Assembly (NCBI GenBank): GCA_944386645.1
Contig: CALXBW010000002.1
Location: 8,581 to 72,580, forward strand
DNA length: 64,000 bases
Reading direction: 5' to 3'
Source: an uncultured Clostridia bacterium
GTDB taxonomy: Bacteria > Bacillota > Clostridia > TANB77 > CAG-508
Made by a program: the position numbers and the translations under genes. Below the pieces are notes generated by a model. It searched no databases. It was not told the DNA's origin and saw only the letters and a list, made by a program, of their open reading frames with translations. Shown here piece after piece: positions 14,886-43,931 of this stretch (positions are counted from its first letter, which is position 1; each line of letters starts with the position of its first letter).

Positions 14886-16043
<1,158 letters not shown>

Positions 16044-29073: not shown

Positions 29074-31285
29074 TTATAATTCTCCTTTCTCTAATTGTGA
29101 TGATGCTATTTCATAGTAAGTAGGACAATTTTTTAGTAACTCCTTATGTGTTCCTTTTCCCACTATCTTACCTTCATCTAGAACTACTATTTGATCAGCA
29201 TTCATTATTGTACTTACACGCTGAGCAACAATTAATATTGTATTTTCTTTAAAGTACTCATTTAATGCCTTTCTTAATTTACTATCTGTTTCAAAATCTA
29301 ATGCAGAAAAACTATCATCAAAAATATAAATTGGAGCATTTTTTACTAAAGCCCTAGCAATAGATATTCTTTGTTTTTGTCCACCAGATACATTCGTTCC
29401 GCCTTGTGCTATAGGACTATTATATTTTTCTTCCTTACTGTCGATAAATTCTTTAGCCTGTGCTATATTTGCACATATTTCCATAAACTCATCACTTGCT
29501 TCTTGATTTCCATATTTTAAGTTAGATTCAATTGTACCAGATAATAAGCTTGCTTTTTGTGGTACATATGCTATTTGTTTTTGCAAATCACTATAATCAT
29601 AATCTTTTACATTAACTCCATTTACTAATATTTCACCATCTGTTACATCATAAAACCTTGGAATTAATTTCACAAGAGTAGATTTACCGTGAACCCGTAG
29701 AACCTATAAAAGCTGTTGTTTTTCCTTTCTCCGCAGTAAATGTAATATTTTCTAATGCATATTCATCTGCACCTGTATATTTAAAATTAACATTCTTAAA
29801 TTCAACAATACCTTTATTTTTATCATTTGATTTTTTAGGTTCTTTTGGATTCTTAATTACAGGTTCTGTTTCTAATACTTCATTAATACGATTAGCAGAA
29901 ACAGAAGCTCTTGGCACCATTATAAATATCATTGATATCATCAAGAATGACATTATAACTTGCATTGCATATTGCATAAATGCCATCATATCTCCAACCA
30001 TTAATGCAGATTCAGCTATTTGATGTGCACCTATCCACACAATTAATAAAGTTATACCATTCATTATTAATGTCATTGCAGGCATCATAAATACCATAAC
30101 TCTATTTACAAATAAATTAGTTTTTGTTAATTTCTTATTTACATTATCAAATCTTTTTTCTTCATATCTTTGAGTTCTAAAAGCTCTAGAAACCATTACC
30201 CCTTCTAAATTTTCTCTAGAAACTAAATTAATATTATCTATTAATTCTTGCAATTTCTTAAATTTTGGCATAGCAAGAGCAAATATTGTCGCAATTAATA
30301 TAAGTATTAAAACACATGCTAAAACAAGAATCCATGTCATACTAGTATTTGTATTTAAAATCATAATTATTGCACCAATCCCCATAACTGGAGCATATGC
30401 CATTATTCTTATTCCAGAAATAATTATATTTTGTATTTGAGTTATATCATTTGTAGTTCTTGTTATTAAAGATGATGTTGAAAATTTATCAAATTCAGCA
30501 TCTGAAAAAGTTTGAACTTTTTTAAATACATCTTTTCTTATATTTCTTGCTATTTTTGTTGCAGTTCTAGTAGAAATAAAATTTACACACACTGCTGATA
30601 CAATTACAAGCAGTGTTACCCCTATCATTTTTAAGCCAACCCATAATATATAATTAGTCTGTATTTTAGATATATCTACATCAATCTCTTGATAAAATAA
30701 TTTTGTAAATACAATAGCAGATTGTTCTAACAAACTTTCATCCATACTTTCTGCTTTTTGTCTTGCTTCATTTATTATGGATTCATCTATACTTTCCAAA
30801 TATGGTTGCATACCATATATTTTAGAAAAATCTATTTGTGTATTGTCAGTTATCTCAACTGAATTATTATTTTTACTATTCAATTCTGACATAACATCTA
30901 TAAATGTTCTTGTAGACACTTCAAAAACTCTGTCTAATTTACTTAAATCATCATCACTTACATCTTTAAGTATGTATATATTATTATCCATAATTCCTGG
31001 ATAATCTTCTACATATTCACTATTTCCTTTTTGAATTAATTCATAATTTTCATCAACTATTTTAATATCATCTTCTGACATAAATACCTTTAAAAAATTC
31101 ATACCATTTTCACTAATAGCTTTTGGTGTGGCATTTTCTATTCCTGATGATTGTATTCCAACATTTACAATATCAGACATAAGACTTGGTAATTTTAAAT
31201 TGCCAATTGCTTGCACAAATAATAAACATATTGCTAATATTAATATAAATATATATGGTCTTAAATATCTGTGTAGTTTTAACAC
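29074..31285 (-). pseudogene. ABC exporter permease/ATP-binding gene split by a +1 frameshift inside the Walker A codons
   Basis: ORF 29684-31285 ends ...AFIGSTGSR* and ORF 29074-29673 continues (KST)LVKLIPRFYDV...LSGGQKQR; DNA reads ggttca-c-ggtaaatct where GSTGSGKST is expected (extra base near 29686-29692). Confidence 0.6.
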
Positions 31286-35584: not shown

Positions 35585-36019
35585 TCATACATTAAACTGA
35601 GCCAATTTTTTTAACATCATAAGCTCAGCGTAAACTCTAGCAGCCCACATTATATCATGCAGAGCCAATTTCATTTTTTCTTCTTTCGATATGTTTCTTC
35701 CAAACAATTCAATTCTTTCCCTTGTTACAGGTAAAGACCTTTCTATCACTGACTTTGCAAAATAATCAGTGAACTTACCATCACAAACAAGGTTTAAATT
35801 TTCACCGAAACGATCTGCCAGAAGCTGGCAATGTCCGTAAAAGAAGTCACCTATAACAACATTATAATCATCTACTTTATTACAATTTCCAAAATACTTT
35901 TCGTAATAGGAAATTAAATCATTGAATTCCTTACTATCCACAATTACTTGTGATATAGCAATTTCCTGCTTTAAAATTTCGCTATTAAGGTGAGAACTTT
36001 CTTTAAATTTGTTTAACAT
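35585..36019 (-). CDS. Hypothetical protein, paralogue A of a duplicated pair (with 36782-37195)
   Basis: 144 aa; shares SLPVTRERIELFG...LKKLA C-terminal block and upstream promoter/5'UTR with paralogue B. Confidence 0.55.
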   Translation of the reverse strand: MLNKFKESSHLNSEILKQEIAISQVIVDSKEFNDLISYYEKYFGNCNKVDDYNVVIGDFFYGHCQLLADRFGENLNLVCDGKFTDYFAKSVIERSLPVTRERIELFGRNISKEEKMKLALHDIMWAARVYAELMMLKKLAQFNV

Positions 36020-36216
36020 AATTTTTTCCTCCTTATTTTAATAAATGTAAACACTATGTTGCCCTAGAGGAACTTCTAAGTTTCACAACATCTTTAGTAT
36101 ACCATACTTTACATAATATAGCAAGTATTTTTTAGAAATTTTTTCATTTTTCTGATTTTTATGTTACATTTTAGTAAAAAATCATAATAATTTTGCATTT
36201 TATATTCGTATTTACA

Positions 36217-36756
36217 TTAAATCATAATAAAAATATAAATAAAATATATAATTATTAAAATAATACCTCTTTTCCCATCTAACTCGCTATTTTCATTCAT
36301 TGCTGCAATTAGCTGTAATGCCATTGTTACAATTATTAAAAGTAACATAGGTCCATTAAAATCTGTTGCAAATGTTAAAGGATTAATTACTGCTCCTATT
36401 CCCACTAATAAGCATAAATTTATAATATTAGAACCCGAGATATTTCCTAGTAGCAAATCTGTTTCATTTTTCCTTGCTGATATAATACCTGTTATAATTT
36501 CTGGTAAAGCTGTACCAATTGCTACAATTGTCATGCCTATAAATCTTTCAGATAAACCCAAATTATTTGCAATTTCTATAGAATTATCAACAACAAAATC
36601 TGCTCCAAATTTTAATCCTAAAATTCCTACAATCATATAAAAAATAATTGTGTTAGTTGTATAATTCTCTTTTGATTTAACTTTCTTTATTAAATTACAT
36701 TGCAGACTAAAGCCCAATGCATATAAAGAAAAAAATGAAAAATAAAAGAGAGCCAT
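36217..36756 (-). CDS. Half-size Na+/Ca2+ exchanger (CaCA) family membrane protein (single alpha-repeat; possibly truncated)
   Basis: 179 aa with GMTIVAIGTALPEIITGIISARKNETDLLLGNISGSNIINL (alpha-repeat GTSLPE motif); typical CaCA proteins have two such halves. Confidence 0.5.
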   Translation of the reverse strand: MALFYFSFFSLYALGFSLQCNLIKKVKSKENYTTNTIIFYMIVGILGLKFGADFVVDNSIEIANNLGLSERFIGMTIVAIGTALPEIITGIISARKNETDLLLGNISGSNIINLCLLVGIGAVINPLTFATDFNGPMLLLIIVTMALQLIAAMNENSELDGKRGIILIIIYFIYIFIMI

Positions 36757-36781
36757 TAAATAATAGCTCCCTTTATTATGT

Positions 36782-37195
36782 TTAATCTGCTAACCTTTTT
36801 ATGGTCATTAATTCTTTTAAAATTATTCCCACCACTTTCATATCATGTTTCCACAATATTTCCTTTTGTTTTTTACTGAGAATATTATTCTCAATAATCA
36901 CTCGTTTCACTGGTAAGGTCCGATCATATGCTTCCTTTTCAAAGCACTCTGAAAATTTAATTTCAGTTAAATGATCCAAATCATCACCAAATAACTCTGA
37001 AAGTCTCCTAGCCATTTCGTGAATCCTATCTCCTATCAACACAGAATACCGTGTTGGTGTTCCAGGAAAATTCGATTCACATTGTATAAGTAACACTTTA
37101 AACTCCAATGTTTTTGCAATTTTCTTTGCAATGTTTTTTTCGTAAGCAATTACTTCTGCCGGCAATACTGAACTTTCATTGAATAAATTAAACAT
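36782..37195 (-). CDS. Hypothetical protein, paralogue B of a duplicated pair
   Basis: 137 aa; TLPVKRVIIENNILSKKQKEILWKHDMKVVGIILKELMTIKRLA similar to paralogue A. Confidence 0.55.
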   Translation of the reverse strand: MFNLFNESSVLPAEVIAYEKNIAKKIAKTLEFKVLLIQCESNFPGTPTRYSVLIGDRIHEMARRLSELFGDDLDHLTEIKFSECFEKEAYDRTLPVKRVIIENNILSKKQKEILWKHDMKVVGIILKELMTIKRLAD

Positions 37196-37447
37196 AATAT
37201 TTTCCTCCTTAAAATAAGAAATATAAACACATGATGTCCTTAGAGGACCTAATTAAATTTTCATCAACATATTTATTACAGCATACTTTACATAATGTAG
37301 CAAGTACTTTTTTTTTAATTTTTCCTATTTTTCCTTATTATTCCCTTCTAATTGCATATATTATACATTTACTTTTTTACAACACTTCTAAATTATTTAT
37401 TTTAGCAATATATATTTATAATTTAAATTATAAACCACTATAGAGAA

Positions 37448-37830: not shown

Positions 37831-38370
37831 TTATAATTGCTTTTCTACTAAATCTTGTAATGTATATGATATTATCTTCAATTCTTTATCTTTAGTATTT
37901 GCTCTCGATTGAACATTATCCGTTTCAGCTATAAAATTTACTATGTATTGTTCTATATATTTTTTAGTTCCTGATGAATAAGTAATATTGAAAATAATAT
38001 CTTCTATATTGTCTTTTCCTAATTCTATAGGGTCTATATTAGAAATTATTGATTGAGTTGGAGCTATAAAAGTATTTTTTATATGTTCAAATGGTCTACG
38101 TTCTGTAGAATAAGAATACTTTAATAAATCTAGATTACATTCAAACTTTTCTATAATAGCACCTGTTTGTCCAAAATTTCTCAATACAATATAATATGCC
38201 GGGTCTTGAAAATTTGTTACTCTTACATAAATTGTTATATATGGTCTTGTACTATTTTCTATCATTTTGCTATTTTGTTTTAATGTTATTACTACTGTTA
38301 TTACAGATATTACTGACAAAACAAACGATAAAATGCATAGAACTACATTTATCCAATCTGATATTTGCAT
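37831..38370 (-). CDS. Membrane-anchored hypothetical protein
   Basis: 179 aa; N-terminal TM VVLCILSFVLSVISVITVVITL. Confidence 0.5.
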   Translation of the reverse strand: MQISDWINVVLCILSFVLSVISVITVVITLKQNSKMIENSTRPYITIYVRVTNFQDPAYYIVLRNFGQTGAIIEKFECNLDLLKYSYSTERRPFEHIKNTFIAPTQSIISNIDPIELGKDNIEDIIFNITYSSGTKKYIEQYIVNFIAETDNVQSRANTKDKELKIISYTLQDLVEKQL

Positions 38371-39995: not shown

Positions 39996-40017
39996 TGTGT
40001 ATGGTGCGGTTTTCTTG

Positions 40018-40043
40018 CAGCTTACGAACTCTGTTCTCTTTCT
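40018..40043. repeat. Left inverted-repeat copy (CAGCTTACGAACT-C-TGTTCTCTTTCT) matching reverse complement of 43600-43648
   Basis: Direct comparison: rc(43600-43648)=CAGCTTACGAACT-gtaaaaagtttgtaagttgtttat-TGTTCTCTTTCT; left copy lacks the 24-nt insert. Confidence 0.45.
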
Positions 40044-40148
40044 AAAACTTCATTTTATTTAATTAATAGCAATCCTATTTTACTTGATGAATCTAAACTA
40101 TTGATTTTAATTATTGAAAAAAATGTATATTTCAAAATTATAGTTAAA

Positions 40149-41357
40149 CTATAGATTATTCCATTCTCTTTCTAAAACAAATCCTCTATTGTTTCTTAAT
40201 ACTTGTAAAGCAGCTAAGTTTATTTCAATACAATTCTTAAAATCTCTATCTTGTCCTGAAATACCAAACTTTCTTATAAATTCAATATTTATTCGAGCAG
40301 TCTCTAATAAATTTTCTTGTGCAATAATACTTTCATTGAAAGAATCTCTATTTAAAATATCTATTTGATATTTTAAGCTGTTTAAATAATGTCTGTGAGA
40401 TTCCCCTTCACTATATGATGTACTGGTTGGTAAAGCACCATTAAATAAGACATTAGAATATTCATCATTTAGACTTGAATCTGGTTTCATTCTATTTAAT
40501 ATACCATTATTAAATGCTAAATCCAAAAAAGAGATTTTATATTCAGATAATGCTTGAGGATAATAGTACCATTTATTTCTTTGCTTTGGTTTAGACTCTT
40601 CATCTTTAAATTTATTATCAAATTTTCTTACATTAAGCCAAGTTCCTGAAGCAATAGCATCAATCTTAGTAGGTGCAAAAGATAAAAATTGATGATTGGC
40701 ATATCCTAAAATTACCTTTTTTCTTTGTAACTTTAATCCAGCACATAAATCCATTAAATTTGTCATCCAAGTAATTTCATCGTCTATTAAATATTTATTT
40801 TCTGGATGATATGCTACAACATAGTATCCATCTACATCCCATTTTTCGGTCTTTTCAAGTATTCTTTCAACTATCTCATTACTTCCTAGTAACGCATTAC
40901 TTGGTAAAGCTATTGTCATTATTCTATTTTTATCTGTCATAATCTCTTTTGATTTATCTACCAATACCTTATTTTTTTCAAACCAATTACTATCAATTTC
41001 AGATTCCATTATACTTGGTATAATATATTCTATAGTACCAGCTGTATCATTATTCTCTTTAATTTTTTTTAACAATTGTTCTTCTTTTGATATATTTTCC
41101 TTTTTCCCAATATTGGTATAGTTAACCAAATTATGATATCCATACATATCTAAATTTTTATGATTTTGCTTAGGATAATAGCATTGAGGATCAAATAAAA
41201 GATTTATATTATGATTTCTAAACTCTCTACACCATTTCCACAATGCTTCTTTTTTTATATCTCTTGGACTTAAAATTACAGTTGCTTTTCCCCATTTATC
41301 AGCTAAATCCAAAGATAGTTGTTTCATACCATAACCAAATTGTAAATATAATTCCAT
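40149..41357 (-). CDS. Hypothetical 402-aa protein, translationally coupled (TAATG) to upstream Ser/Thr kinase gene
   Basis: ATG at 41357-41355 overlaps kinase stop (gaaTAATGg); MELYLQFGYGMKQ...; no family recognised. Confidence 0.55.
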   Translation of the reverse strand: MELYLQFGYGMKQLSLDLADKWGKATVILSPRDIKKEALWKWCREFRNHNINLLFDPQCYYPKQNHKNLDMYGYHNLVNYTNIGKKENISKEEQLLKKIKENNDTAGTIEYIIPSIMESEIDSNWFEKNKVLVDKSKEIMTDKNRIMTIALPSNALLGSNEIVERILEKTEKWDVDGYYVVAYHPENKYLIDDEITWMTNLMDLCAGLKLQRKKVILGYANHQFLSFAPTKIDAIASGTWLNVRKFDNKFKDEESKPKQRNKWYYYPQALSEYKISFLDLAFNNGILNRMKPDSSLNDEYSNVLFNGALPTSTSYSEGESHRHYLNSLKYQIDILNRDSFNESIIAQENLLETARINIEFIRKFGISGQDRDFKNCIEINLAALQVLRNNRGFVLEREWNNL

Positions 41358-42211
41358 TATTCCTCTCCCATAATTAAAGTTTCTTTTAGCCCTTTCAACC
41401 ATTCTAATGCTTTTTTAGCAGAAGGTGGCCTTCTTGATATTTGTTTCATCATTAGTGTTTCAATCAGACCCATAAACTGTTGTTGTGTATCTCCATCTAT
41501 TTGTAGTCTTTCTGGAGTTATAGTTACGGTTTTATACCATATTTCATTATATGATTGTTCTGTTCCAGTTCTATATGGATTAACTCCAAATATACATTCA
41601 TAAATCACAACACCTATAGAAAATAAATCCGTTCTAGAATCTATATTTCTATTCTCATAATAATTTAATAACTCTGGAGCTCCATATCCTGGAGTGTGTG
41701 GTGATTTTGTATTAAGGACAAATGTAAGAGATTGCATATCCAATGCTTTTGCAATTCCAAAATCTATCAAATAATATTTGTTGTTGCTCATTAATATATT
41801 TTCAGGTTTTATATCTCTATGAACTATATTATATTCCTCCAATTTACTTTCAGTAATTAATAATGTCTCCAATAAAGTATAAGCTTCTTTCAAGTTGAAT
41901 TTATGTTTTTTTATAAGATTTTCTCTTAAGCTATTTCCATCAATAAATTGTTCTAAAATATAAATACATTTATTCCCGATAAGGTTAATTTCTCCAGTAT
42001 CATACATTTTAGGAACATTGGGAATATCATATTTCGTTACAATTTCAATCTCTCTAATTACTCTATCAACATCAGTATCAGCTTTCACAATTTTTAGAAC
42101 ACAATCACCATAGTCTTTTGATTTAATTTTATATACATCTTTTTGTGAACCAGGATTTAATTTATCAATAATTTTTATTCCTGAAATCTGTTTTTCTATC
42201 TCATCTTCCAT
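41357..42211 (-). CDS. Hanks-type (eukaryotic-like) Ser/Thr protein kinase, stand-alone catalytic domain
   Basis: 284 aa; catalytic loop HRDIKPENIL; DFG (LIDFGIAKAL); APE-like GYGAPELL; degenerate Gly-loop and VxK (CVLKIVK). Confidence 0.8.
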   Translation of the reverse strand: MEDEIEKQISGIKIIDKLNPGSQKDVYKIKSKDYGDCVLKIVKADTDVDRVIREIEIVTKYDIPNVPKMYDTGEINLIGNKCIYILEQFIDGNSLRENLIKKHKFNLKEAYTLLETLLITESKLEEYNIVHRDIKPENILMSNNKYYLIDFGIAKALDMQSLTFVLNTKSPHTPGYGAPELLNYYENRNIDSRTDLFSIGVVIYECIFGVNPYRTGTEQSYNEIWYKTVTITPERLQIDGDTQQQFMGLIETLMMKQISRRPPSAKKALEWLKGLKETLIMGEE

Positions 42212-42224
42212 TTTATTTTCCTTT

Positions 42225-42950
42225 CTATATACAAATTTCTTTTCCTATAATTTCCTCTATTACCAATGAAGAATAACTATTAGGTATTTTATTTCTTCTC
42301 GCTTTCATAATTAAATTAAAGTTCTTATTTTTTTCTTGATACATTCCAATTCCTAAATTATCAAACTTGTTTCTAATAACATTATTAGGTTCTTGTTTTG
42401 TATTAGATAATACATAACACTCAGATGAAAATCGCAAATTATTTATTGCTTGTGTTAAAGCACTATTCCATTGATTTATTTTTGCTTCAACAGTTTCTAT
42501 TTTAGTAATCGCAAAGAAATTTTTTCTATCGCAAATTTTCCATAGTTTATTATTTCTTTCAATCATTTTAGCATCAAGCAATCTAGTAATAGTCTCTAAA
42601 ATTGTACTTTCATTAATACCTAGTTGTCTTTTTAATTGACTATTACTTATACCATTCTTCATATAGATGTGATATAATATTTTTAAATCTTGATTATTTA
42701 GCTTTTTTCTGTTTTCATTCCAATTATCAAAATTTTTTTTATTATATTCAACAAATATAATATCTGGATATGAAGATTCTATTTTTAATTCTTCAAAAAT
42801 TGCCATACTTATATCTTTATTTTTGTTATATTTTTCGAATTTATTTTTTTTATAATTTATAAATCTATTAACCAACTCTAATTCTAAACCTTGAGTTTGA
42901 TTTCTTGTCAAAATATTTGATTTATTATTAAATTCAATAATATCATTCAT
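42225..42950 (-). CDS. Hypothetical protein with predicted winged-helix (MarR-like) segment; first gene of the kinase operon
   Basis: 241 aa; GISNSQLKRQLGINESTILETITRLLDAKMIERN resembles wHTH; AGAGGGA RBS; 13-bp gap to kinase gene. Confidence 0.5.
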   Translation of the reverse strand: MNDIIEFNNKSNILTRNQTQGLELELVNRFINYKKNKFEKYNKNKDISMAIFEELKIESSYPDIIFVEYNKKNFDNWNENRKKLNNQDLKILYHIYMKNGISNSQLKRQLGINESTILETITRLLDAKMIERNNKLWKICDRKNFFAITKIETVEAKINQWNSALTQAINNLRFSSECYVLSNTKQEPNNVIRNKFDNLGIGMYQEKNKNFNLIMKARRNKIPNSYSSLVIEEIIGKEICI

Positions 42951-43147
42951 AATATCCCTCTATTCTTTAGTATAAAATTTATCATAAAAAATAAAAAATT
43001 TCAATATTTCATAAATACTTATCTATTCTTCAAAGTAATTGAATATTGTATAATTAAATGCACGTTGGTAACATAAAAATATAGACACATAATTAAAAAT
43101 CATTTAAAATGTTAGTTGACTAGACTAAACATTGGAGGTTTTTAATT

Positions 43148-43513
43148 ATGTGTCAAGAACAGTATAACACAAAAAGAAAAAAATCTAAACAATTAACTTA
43201 CAAAGATAGAATAAAAATTGAGGCATTGTATAATGAATTGAATTTAACATATACAGAAATAGGAAAAATAATAGGAAAAGACAGAACAACTATCAGTAGA
43301 GAAATAAAATTAGGGTTAATAGAATTAGAAACATCATATTTGCCAGTATGGAAGTATTGTTCAGAAGTAGCGCAAAGAAAAAACGAAGAAAATGAAACAG
43401 CTAAAGGGACAAACTTAAAAATTGGAAAAGATATAAAATTGGCTAATTTTATAGAGAAAGAAATTAAAGAAGGGAAATTTTCACCAGAAGTAATAGAACA
43501 TAAAATAAAATAA
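43148..43513 (+). mobile_element. IS30-family transposase N-terminal fragment (HTH region only; DDE domain missing) - IS remnant/pseudogene
   Basis: 121 aa; LTYKDRIKIEALYNELNLTYTEIGKIIGKDRTTISREIKLG matches the IS30 transposase N-terminal HTH pattern; ORF ends after ~120 aa where full-length enzymes are ~340 aa. Confidence 0.55.
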
Positions 43514-43597
43514 AACAAGGCAAATATTCAACAACGTTGTGTTTTAAAACGATTTACAACTATATAGATAAAGAAGTATAAAAAATTGTCCTCCTTT

Positions 43598-43645
43598 CCA
43601 GAAAGAGAACAATAAACAACTTACAAACTTTTTACAGTTCGTAAG
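43598..43645 (-). terminator. Terminator of tRNA operon (hairpin cttacgaact-gtaaaa-agtttgtaag then T-rich); also right inverted-repeat copy
   Basis: 10-bp stem with 1 mismatch immediately 3' of tRNA-Phe on the minus strand, followed by ttgtttattgttctctttc. Confidence 0.45.
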
Positions 43646-43656
43646 CTGTTAGAATA

Positions 43657-43732
43657 TGGTGGCTTCAAGTGGAATCGAACCACTGACACGGGGATTTTCA
43701 GTCCCCTGCTCTACCAACTGAGCTATGAAGCC
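43657..43732 (-). tRNA. tRNA-Phe (anticodon GAA), CCA encoded
   Basis: rc reads GGCTTCATAGCTCAGTTGGTAGAGCAGGGGACTGAAAATCCCCGTGTCAGTGGTTCGATTCCACTTGAAGCCACCA. Confidence 0.9.
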
Positions 43733-43755
43733 ATGAATTTTCATTATAAAAAAAA

Positions 43756-43832
43756 TGGCGACCCGGAACGGGCTCGAACCGTCGACCTCTAGCGTGACAG
43801 GCTAGCGTTCTAACCAACTGAACTACCGGGCC
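43756..43832 (-). tRNA. tRNA-Asp (anticodon GTC), CCA encoded
   Basis: rc reads GGCCCGGTAGTTCAGTTGGTTAGAACGCTAGCCTGTCACGCTAGAGGTCGACGGTTCGAGCCCGTTCCGGGTCGCCA. Confidence 0.9.
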
Positions 43833-43855
43833 GTATAGGAAATAAAGTAAAAAAA

Positions 43856-43931
43856 TGGTGGGCGCAATAGGGCTCGAACCTATGACCTCCTGCTTGTAAG
43901 GCAGATGCTCTCCCAGCTGAGCTATACGCCC
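43856..43931 (-). tRNA. tRNA-Val (anticodon TAC), CCA encoded
   Basis: rc reads GGGCGTATAGCTCAGCTGGGAGAGCATCTGCCTTACAAGCAGGAGGTCATAGGTTCGAGCCCTATTGCGCCCACCA. Confidence 0.9.

Follow-up and report, generated by a model that had tools for sequence, protein, structure and literature searches.

Stand-alone Hanks-type kinases are validated defences (PMC9519451). PD-T4-6 (PMC9519451) and the staphylococcal Stk2 are single-gene systems of this kind, and Hanks kinases also belong to multi-gene defences such as MADS and BREX type 2 (Pgl, with PglW). Enzymes with the fold of tRNA-guanine transglycosylases (TGTs) function in two further systems, Dpd and type IV CBASS (PMC10164549; bioRxiv 10.1101/2025.04.06.647259). 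The active site of TGT and of DpdA (PDB 7UI4) contains three Asp residues, an acid/base after β3, a base-reading Asp and a nucleophile after β8 (PMC10164549), and Cap10 (PDB 9NTN; bioRxiv 10.1101/2025.04.06.647259) is a TGT-family enzyme remodelled for protein deazaguanylation. A comparable regulatory logic is found in CapK/CapS, where a kinase and its DNA-binding substrate lie next to an immune effector and control it; CapK is an anti-sigma-type (GHKL) kinase, CapS is a STAS protein, and the two occur together with a wide variety of operons (PMC13373217).

The locus described here lies in a contig of an uncultured Clostridia bacterium (CALXBW010000002.1, assembly GCA_944386645.1), of which a stretch of 64,000 nucleotides, hereafter the window, was analysed. 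Three genes, A, B and C, are all encoded on the minus strand (Table 1). The spacer between A and B is 13 nt long and contains an AGGAA-type ribosome-binding site, while the stop codon TAA of B and the start codon ATG of C overlap as TAATG, with GGGAGAGGA just upstream. These junctions bear out the first-pass annotation, which had described a coupled three-gene operon centred on a kinase-domain-only Hanks kinase. The GC content of the cassette, 0.26–0.28, equals that of the background.

Table 1. Features of the A-B-C locus; positions refer to the window.
Feature	Position	Strand	Remark
Hairpin, 22-nt arms, 4-nt loop	39946..39993		Separates gene C from the convergent 330-aa gene; outside the transferred unit
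Left repeat arm	40012..40048	+	Partial inverted copy of the tRNA-terminator sequence, 24 nt missing
Gene C	41357..40149	-	402 aa; start is M16 of a 417-aa ORF
Gene B	42211..41357	-	284 aa
Gene A	42950..42225	-	241 aa
Upstream region travelling with the cassette	42951..43009	-	DNA homology with loci L001, L002 and L003 stops at 43009
Candidate promoter TTGAAA-17-TAAATT with upstream TG	43004..42976	-	Consensus match only
IS30-family transposase remnant	43148..43513	+	121 aa, N-terminal HTH only; Pfam HTH_38, E 4.9e-10
Two tandem terminator hairpins of the tRNA operon (right repeat arm)	43585..43654	-
tRNA-Val(TAC), tRNA-Asp(GTC), tRNA-Phe(GAA) operon	43657..43931	-	Integration hotspot

The three genes are obligately linked. 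Of 80 genome loci, 71 have A, B and C in this order on one strand, and seven of the other nine lie at a contig edge; among the 73 loci with enough upstream sequence the order is likewise kept in 71, and the remaining two are decayed copies. Loci with the triad span about a dozen phyla, and because the same order recurs in different phyla the arrangement is far beyond chance. The B-C gap is mostly 20 nt or less across the loci, with many overlaps. Sampling from the A side recovers B and then C as well; A has no stretch conserved enough for a metagenome pattern scan, and this sampling consisted of look-ups from A-side proteins. The module is rare and patchily distributed, with 152 matches among 185,579 species genomes. 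Complete triads also occur in two IMG/VR contigs, a B. mycoides plasmid and a plasmid of the haloarchaeon Natribaculum, whose C is just 26–27% identical to that of the window. Identity does not track taxonomy: the C protein of the window shares 49% identity with copies from Deltaproteobacteria and planctomycetes, and 38–39% with many from Lachnospiraceae. The catalytic residues of A and B persist to the most divergent copies. The cassette is thus tightly coupled, under purifying conservation and mobile across phyla and domains. This supports the first-pass annotation, which had described an accessory module in a mobile-looking context. Viral collections are nearly devoid of it (2 of 2.9 million IMG/VR contigs, 0 of 50,697 phage records), which fits a defence role and is not diagnostic of one.

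Protein B is a soluble Hanks-type Ser/Thr kinase consisting of the catalytic domain alone, the sequence ending directly after it. It matches Pfam Pkinase (PF00069) with 121.4 bits against a gathering threshold of 31.7 (E 5.6e-35, residues 16–269) and contains the HRDIKPENIL, DFG and APE motifs. Residues K40, E54, H131-R-D133, K135, N138, D150-F-G152, E180 (of APE), D195 and R261 are kept in 72–79 of 79 orthologues, as are S161, T163 and T173 of the activation loop. In the Gly-rich loop, whose sequence PGSQKDV is atypical, Q23 and V26 are conserved. The Hanks catalytic set (VAIK Lys, αC Glu, HRD, Asn, DFG and APE) is intact in the plasmid and archaeal copies too, and B is predicted from its residues to be catalytically intact. 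Its best PADLOC matches, mad6 (E 2.4e-39) and PD-T4-6 (E 1.3e-37), extend across the kinase domain only; the latter (HMM PDLC04042) aligns residues 40–276 of B with positions 40–273 of 292, a similarity at the level of the kinase domain.

Protein A is predicted to adopt a PD-(D/E)xK nuclease fold in which a MarR-like winged helix (wHTH, residues ~79–139) is inserted between the core strands β2 and β3. The predicted fold contains the α-β-β-β-α-β core of the superfamily, and the motif elements are all found: the α1 Glu is E23, the β2 (P)D is P62-D63 and the β3 (D/E)xK is E155-A-K157. These residues and Q167 are kept in 70–72 of 72 sequences, the catalytic core E23, E54, D63, E155-x-K157 and Q167 is invariant or nearly so, and the archaeal copy retains every motif residue except P62. 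The public records annotate A as a "MarR family regulator" or as "hypothetical". A MarR protein was taken here to have a fold of ~140 aa in which dimerising helices lie on either side of the wHTH; A lacks this arrangement, and just the 49-residue wHTH core matches the Pfam MarR model (residues 84–135, E 1.7e-6, 28.2 bits against 24.6), embedded in the nuclease fold. Membership of the MarR family was accordingly rejected. The wHTH-like segment noted at first pass is therefore real, but it does not describe the whole 241-aa protein.

Protein C, with the highest conservation of the three, resembles an enzyme. The protein itself matches nothing in Pfam, NCBIfam, PHROGs, PADLOC or the PDB sequences, and 38 members of its family have no Pfam match even at E 0.1. 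The first-pass annotation had found no recognisable family, which holds for the databases; C nevertheless has relatives in at least 883 clusters, a family whose fold is a TGT-like TIM barrel. The fold is a (β/α)8 barrel with a large insertion between β8 and α8 and a C-terminal helical bundle, and it is closest to the tRNA- and DNA-guanine transglycosylases, having the TGT-type (β/α)8 architecture. A Foldseek search against the PDB ranks generic barrels first by E-value and does not single out TGT. No sequence relation to TGT was detected: a single-sequence search of C against the PDB sequences returned nothing, a profile search gave chance matches only, with no TGT among them, and hhalign of the C family with a bacterial TGT profile gave a probability of 0.2%, that profile being of low diversity (82% identity or more) since it was built from the tgt of the window. 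C was therefore not classed as a TGT-family member (PF01702) by sequence. The host has a separate, canonical tgt (about 14886–16013 in the window, with CDCYTC), and the DSGGFQ, GGLxVGE and CxCxxC...H motifs of bacterial TGT (PDB 3UNT, 2ASH) are missing from C.

The barrel face of C displays a cluster of invariant residues that is kept down to the most divergent copies. When C is compared with DpdA by secondary-structure register only, D56 at the end of β3 and Y60 at position +4 parallel Asp95 and Phe99 of DpdA, an invariant Pro and no Asp follows β4, and the position of the nucleophile after β8 is occupied by the invariant G238. In this register, D56 is the only counterpart in C of the three Asp that are invariant in TGT and DpdA. 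The Zn site CxCxxC...H of the TGT superfamily is also absent, no Cys being invariant in the C-family alignments; E272 and D279 are further invariant carboxylates. With no Zn site, one of three Asp matched and a Gly at the position of the nucleophile, transglycosylase chemistry is doubtful for C.

The triad corresponds to no described system, either in PADLOC matches judged by their cut-offs and the neighbouring genes or in the literature covered (kinase with TGT-like protein and nuclease, BREX-related systems, Dnd, DefensePredictor and CapK/CapS), where no description of it was found. MADS resembles the cassette as a multi-gene defence with a Hanks kinase and provides the top PADLOC match of B, but B reaches 113 bits where the MAD6 model demands 460, A and C match no PADLOC model, and the other MADS components are missing, no neighbour being conserved. 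The same likeness holds for BREX type 2 (Pgl), whose other components are also missing; the PglW model, with a cut-off of 990 bits, gives B 50, and again there are no conserved neighbours. A TerY-P triad is incompatible with A and C, in which domain searches found no vWA or PP2C domain. Neither is B a stand-alone PD-T4-6 gene: it shares with PD-T4-6 and Stk2 the Hanks kinase and, plausibly, an output by abortive infection via phosphorylation, but it is obligatorily flanked by A and C wherever the upstream sequence suffices, bar the two decayed copies. The PknB/Stk1 PASTA locus is excluded by a score of 106.7 bits against 450, by the end of B at 284 aa and by the lack of a phosphatase in the cassette.

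The two systems with a TGT fold also differ from the cassette. In Dpd the DNA-modifying DpdA has no sequence homology to C, which lacks its Zn site and, in the secondary-structure register, counterparts of its nucleophile Asp and base-reading Asp; the partner in the cassette is a Hanks kinase, conservation does not extend past A, B and C, and DpdB, DpdC, the restriction genes and helicases DpdD-K and linked preQ0 synthesis are missing. For type IV CBASS, the cassette has no CD-NTase, QueC-like Cap9 or CBASS effector, and C has no PADLOC Cap match. Unlike CapK/CapS, finally, the Hanks kinase and the wHTH-nuclease occur constantly with the same partner, C. The HMM searches named as a check in the first-pass annotation thus yield Pkinase for B, the MarR wHTH for A and no match for C, and its statements that this is not a PASTA/PP2C housekeeping kinase locus and that no described system can be assigned are both upheld.

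The flanks of the cassette agree in part with the earlier description. The cassette does adjoin the Val-Asp-Phe tRNA operon and a truncated IS30 transposase, which is 35–42% identical to the N-termini of annotated IS30 transposases (tblastn). The inverted repeat is also real: CAGCTTACGAACT is exact at 40018–40030 (+) and 43636–43648 (-) and has five matches at up to two mismatches, a number reached by none of 100 shuffled sequences, and TGTTCTCTTTCT is exact at 40032–40043 (+) and 43600–43611 (-). It does not, however, bound a mobile island as had been supposed, because DNA homology with the cassettes of other hosts is limited to 40129–43009, inside the repeat. The repeat arms were consequently rejected as transposon ends, the right arm being the tRNA terminator. 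On the other side, the hairpin downstream of gene C is probably, judged by its sequence, a terminator shared with the 330-aa gene. In this species, all contigs read that hold the neighbouring 330-aa gene also hold the cassette, and each contig either has it or ends at the tRNAs. No empty site was found among the contigs read, and at this locus the cassette seems to be fixed in the strains of the species that were sampled. In one strain (L091), prophage lysis genes, belonging to an inserted prophage, stand at the position of the tRNA operon.

The wider neighbourhood contains no fourth conserved gene; for the most part it consists of genes for recombinases, integrases and relaxases, together with scattered defence genes of known kind. 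The commonest neighbour cluster is present in 12 of 80 loci, and the 147 nearest neighbours carry 117 Pfam families. Serine recombinases or tyrosine integrases lie near the cassette in 20 loci, and relaxases, TnpV and DDE transposases are found as well. Known defence genes are a scattered minority: one locus (L011) has an NF042964 PLD-like anti-phage protein directly upstream, others have AbiEii, Schlafen/AlbA_2 or DNA methylases, and the DpdE-like matches come from SNF2 helicases in 3 of the 147 neighbours. Co-occurrence with defence genes elsewhere, a check named in the first-pass annotation, is thus observed, but it is sparse.

On balance, we lean towards the view that the three genes make up a single functional module, self-contained and moving horizontally, which most probably serves in conflict with phages or plasmids and is of a kind that has yet to be described. 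We infer the defence role from the genomic context. In the proposed mechanism, C, whose active-site face looks intact, would recognise or process a nucleobase in DNA or possibly in tRNA. It could serve to sense nucleic acid that is foreign or modified, or it could be an enzyme that removes or exchanges bases. B would gate the system by phosphorylating A, C or both, or host targets, and A may be the DNA-cleaving effector, a wHTH-guided PD-(D/E)xK endonuclease that probably also auto-represses the operon. We infer both this flow of information, from C through B to A, and the substrates; the roles of the three proteins could be permuted. A bolder version, which we think unlikely, is that C represents a previously unrecognised branch of the TGT superfamily, one that excises or exchanges a base in DNA or tRNA and is coupled by Ser/Thr phosphorylation to the endonuclease. 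The cassette would then be a kinase-gated, base-sensing immunity common to Bacteria and Archaea, with a chemistry distinct from Dpd and from CBASS deazaguanylation.

The module could instead act in the manner of restriction-modification, a DpdA-like C marking host DNA with a base from the host pool (e.g. 7-deazaguanine), A restricting unmarked DNA and B replacing DpdB as an ATP-dependent control. This is improbable in view of C itself, in which the Zn site is missing, two of the three TGT/DpdA Asp have no positional counterpart in the secondary-structure register and homology to TGT/DpdA at the sequence level is lacking. Nor do que, folE, dpdB or dpdC genes recur beside the cassette, which is moreover present in an actinobacterial MAG (L046), from a phylum in which queuosine metabolism is mostly not known.

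Another explanation, to which we attach an equally low probability, is kinase-driven abortive infection or an addiction of the toxin-antitoxin type. B would be a toxic effector acting on host proteins, A a repressor or antitoxin that uses the nuclease fold for binding, and C a trigger sensor or neutraliser, and the main benefit could be the stabilisation of mobile elements and not phage defence. Stk2, PD-T4-6 and HipA phosphorylate host proteins, and B is closest to defence kinases. The cassette resides on integrative elements and plasmids, including those of Bacillus, beside recombinases, and decayed copies often have the kinase truncated or interrupted (L040, L072, L093/L094), which suggests a cost of carrying the kinase. 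The CapK/CapS kinase-repressor pair, with its VapC toxin-antitoxin derivative, offers a precedent in concept (PMC13373217). The full nuclease catalytic set of A is, however, strongly constrained even in the archaeal copy, which is unexpected for a mere repressor, and the high conservation and enzyme-like character of C also argue against this reading. Least probable in our judgement is a function outside conflict, such as a pathway of nucleic-acid repair or modification, or a transcription unit under phospho-regulation that acts on host genes. The apparent fixation of the cassette in the species, its background GC content and neighbours that are mostly not defence genes would suit such a role. 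The rarity of the module, its transfer between phyla and domains, its carriage on plasmids and mobile elements, a gene context that is never conserved and the common decayed copies all speak against it.

At present, A is mis-annotated as a MarR regulator, the family of C, with roughly 900 clusters, has no Pfam or NCBIfam model, and automated tools would probably label the kinase alone as "PD-T4-6" and overlook the triad. A self-contained cassette of about 2.9 kb lends itself to easy testing. Should it prove to be a defence system, prokaryotic immunity would have recruited the TGT fold independently for a third time, Dpd and type IV CBASS being the first two, and the cassette would be a rare case of a eukaryotic-like kinase hard-wired to two nucleic-acid enzymes, which would make it a compact model for phospho-regulated immunity.

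The three minus-strand genes of the cassette, A, B and C, are packed as the first-pass annotation had described, with a 13-nt spacer between A and B and a TAATG junction between B and C, just before which lies the ribosome-binding site GGAGAGGA. The neighbouring Val-Asp-Phe tRNAs and the truncated IS30 transposase were likewise located, and the GC content of the cassette (0.26–0.28) equals that of the very AT-rich background. A perfect 16-nt inverted repeat, GACACATAATTAAAAA/TTTTTAATTATGTGTC, spans the start codon of the IS30 remnant and may be an IS-end or a regulatory structure.

Features of the window and of cassette-bearing loci in other genomes (L-numbers)
Feature	Position	Strand	Description
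Gene A	42950..42225	-	ORF, 241 aa
Gene B	42211..41357	-	ORF, 284 aa
Gene C	41357..40149	-	402 aa from ATG overlapping B stop; longest ORF 417 aa
tRNA-Val, tRNA-Asp, tRNA-Phe	43931..43657	-	tRNA operon
IS30-family transposase remnant	43148..43513		121-aa ORF, HTH_38 N-terminus only
16-nt inverted repeat	43084-43154
tRNA-guanine transglycosylase	~14886-16013	-	375 aa
ABC transporter	29074-31285	-	533-aa membrane part, 199-aa ATPase, 10 nt between
Paralogous proteins	35585-36019; 36782-37195		144 aa; 137 aa
Repeats	35994-36152; 37170-37333		about 165 nt, 79% identical
phrog_9607 protein	37831-38370	-	179 aa
SNF2-type helicases	L011:5658-8363; L017:11209-14112; L047:10941-13562
Decayed copies	L040:7720-9921; L072:9704-9988; L093/L094:3006-3569
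Prophage genes	L091:15200-20730

Scanning one genome per species turned up 152 relatives of C, and 80 loci were retrieved. The three genes keep the same order on one strand in 71 of these, the nine exceptions being seven contig ends and two decayed copies (L045 and L072; in the latter A is lost and the kinase is reduced to a stub). Gaps between the genes are small in all loci, a conserved fourth gene is absent from them, and a search begun from A-side proteins gave the same linkage, with the kinase 3' end and C deleted in some strains. Decay is also seen in L040, where about 1.3 kb interrupts the kinase, and in L093 and L094, where the kinase is truncated at 187 aa and polysaccharide genes replace C; the A protein of these two is identical in L095 and L096, where the kinase is full-length. 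Hosts belong to the Bacillota, Desulfobacterota, Planctomycetota, Acidobacteriota, Bacteroidota, Actinobacteria, Spirochaetes, Nitrospirota, Gemmatimonadota and others. Complete triads also occur in two IMG/VR contigs, on a mobilizable B. mycoides plasmid with an adjoining recombinase and integrase, and on a haloarchaeal plasmid (L099, Natribaculum breve CP095393.1, 78.5–81.3 kb region), whose record has no gene annotation at the triad and whose C shows about 26% identity. All these copies keep the catalytic residues of A and B, and the haloarchaeal one is evidence for transfer between domains.

Protein C, previously described as lacking a recognisable family, indeed has no match in Pfam, NCBIfam, PHROGs, PADLOC or PDB sequences, also when a family profile is used, but its relatives (928 clusters in a word-indexed search; 883 representative clusters, of 1.84 billion representatives searched, at E up to 1e-3) form a coherent family. 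None of the 150 best representatives listed is a fusion; each is about 400 aa long or a shorter fragment. In its AF2 model (pLDDT 88.4, pTM 0.90), C folds as a (beta/alpha)8 barrel that carries a large post-beta8 insertion and, at the C-terminus, a helical bundle. By Foldseek E-value, tRNA-guanine transglycosylase (TGT) does not stand out, although it has the highest query-normalised TM-score among the matches listed (0.48 versus 0.30–0.37). In sequence the two are unrelated, hhalign giving a probability of 0.2% when the profile is that of the tgt gene of the host. Residues invariant across the family, including the Bacillus and haloarchaeal copies (Q6, S30-P31, D56-P-Q58-x-Y60, P114, Y179, G238, N242, R244, Y265, E272, H323-Y324), map in the model to the beta8 insertion and to the C-terminal strand ends of the barrel, the place of the active site in TIM-barrel enzymes. 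Three Asp residues are invariant in both TGT and the DNA transglycosylase DpdA (PMC10164549): one after beta3, with an aromatic residue at +4, is the general acid/base, another reads the base, and one after beta8 is the nucleophile. By secondary-structure register only, C has a counterpart of the first (D56 with Y60), while Pro follows beta4 and Gly follows beta8; the Zn site of TGT is absent. We conclude that C adopts, in the model, a TGT-like fold whose active site is remodelled, and that it is not a canonical transglycosylase. The window also encodes a canonical housekeeping TGT (DSGGFQ, GGLSVGE and CDCYTC motifs; homologues carry PF01702), so the host owns a TGT besides C.

Protein A matches only wHTH models (MarR, E 1.7e-6, residues 84–132), and public records label it a MarR regulator. 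The wHTH noted earlier is real and lies as an insert within another fold: the confident AF2 model (pLDDT 89.8) runs alpha1, beta1, beta2, wHTH insert (79–139), beta3, alpha2, beta4, a modelled order that corresponds to the canonical PD-(D/E)xK core. Together with the invariant or near-invariant E23, E54, P62-D63, E155-A-K157 and Q167 in alignments, this order predicts an active, DNA-binding endonuclease.

By its sequence, protein B is unambiguously a Hanks kinase domain (Pkinase, 121 bits) with all catalytic residues conserved in an alignment of 79 orthologues; sensor, transmembrane and PASTA parts are all absent, in keeping with its description as a kinase-only protein. Among defence-database models it matches mad6 and PD-T4-6 best (E about 1e-38). 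Scores far below the NCBIfam equivalog cut-offs for MAD6, PknB-PASTA and PglW indicate that this likeness is generic kinase-domain similarity, and the earlier exclusion of a cell-wall kinase locus holds. The Gly-rich loop (residues 19–27) is atypical, with PGSQKDVY in place of GxGxxGxV; 70 of the 79 cassette kinases keep Q23 and V26, which may be a family signature.

The 147 nearest neighbours of the cassette include 117 different Pfam families, most commonly phage integrases, serine recombinases, relaxases, and TnpV and DDE transposases; by clustering alone, a recombinase or integrase lies within 10 kb in 20 loci. Identity of C is out of step with taxonomy, and the DNA similarity to the closest copies in other hosts (84% and 74%) is confined to 40129–43009, which comprises the three genes and about 60 nt of putative promoter sequence, and does not extend to the inverted repeats proposed as island boundaries. 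These repeats exist (a 13-mer and a 12-mer match exactly between the two sides; 0 of 100 shuffles reached the real match count for the 13-mer pattern), but the right arm simply consists of the tRNA operon's two terminator hairpins in tandem. Within the species, every contig read that bears the adjacent 330-aa gene carries the cassette, and contigs picked by the AMP-ligase gene carry it or break at the tRNAs. No empty site was found in the same-species contigs examined. One same-species strain (L091) has a prophage at the tRNA side, which marks the tRNA locus as an integration hotspot; lysis genes (holin PF05105, Amidase_2) and other phage-like ORFs there replace the AMP-ligase side, beside the tRNA/IS30 remnant.

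Defence genes are scattered among the neighbours (SNF2/PLD helicases, AbiEii, Schlafen/AlbA_2, DNA methylases). In a handful of loci the cassette is directly adjoined by a roughly 900-aa helicase of SNF2 type, either as an occasional accessory gene or as independent neighbouring defence; the one directly upstream in L011 has a PLD domain and exceeds the NF042964 cut-off ('PLD-like anti-phage protein'), whereas that of L017 falls below it and is closest to DrmD. Elsewhere in the window, the phrog_9607 protein (E 2e-28; a phage family without assigned function) has an N-terminal transmembrane segment and may be a phage remnant next to the cassette. Two paralogous unannotated proteins stand either side of a 179-aa Na_Ca_ex fragment (35585–37333), and the two-part ABC transporter is either frameshifted or genuinely split.

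For the triad, whose folds, conservation and linkage are shown here, the evidence best supports a reading as a self-contained conflict module in which the TGT-fold protein C would recognise or process a base, B would act as the gating kinase and A as the wHTH-guided endonuclease effector; the defence role, substrates and order of action are those we infer. A DpdA-like restriction-modification scheme is one rival, disfavoured by the lack of catalytic Asp residues (by secondary-structure register) and of linked deazaguanine genes. A kinase-toxin abortive-infection or addiction module is another rival. Against a non-conflict accessory pathway stand the rarity of the cassette, its transfer across domains and its variable gene context. 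Of the systems with a kinase or a TGT-type enzyme, PD-T4-6, MADS, BREX type 2/Pgl, TerY-P, Dpd and type IV CBASS were tested and none fits; the first-pass annotation, from sequence alone, could likewise assign the cassette to no described system. Literature searches found no description of this triad.

The triad is put forward as a well-defined and easily testable candidate for a multi-gene mobile conflict system in which a kinase is combined with a nuclease and with a nucleic-acid-modifying fold, and which includes an unannotated protein family.
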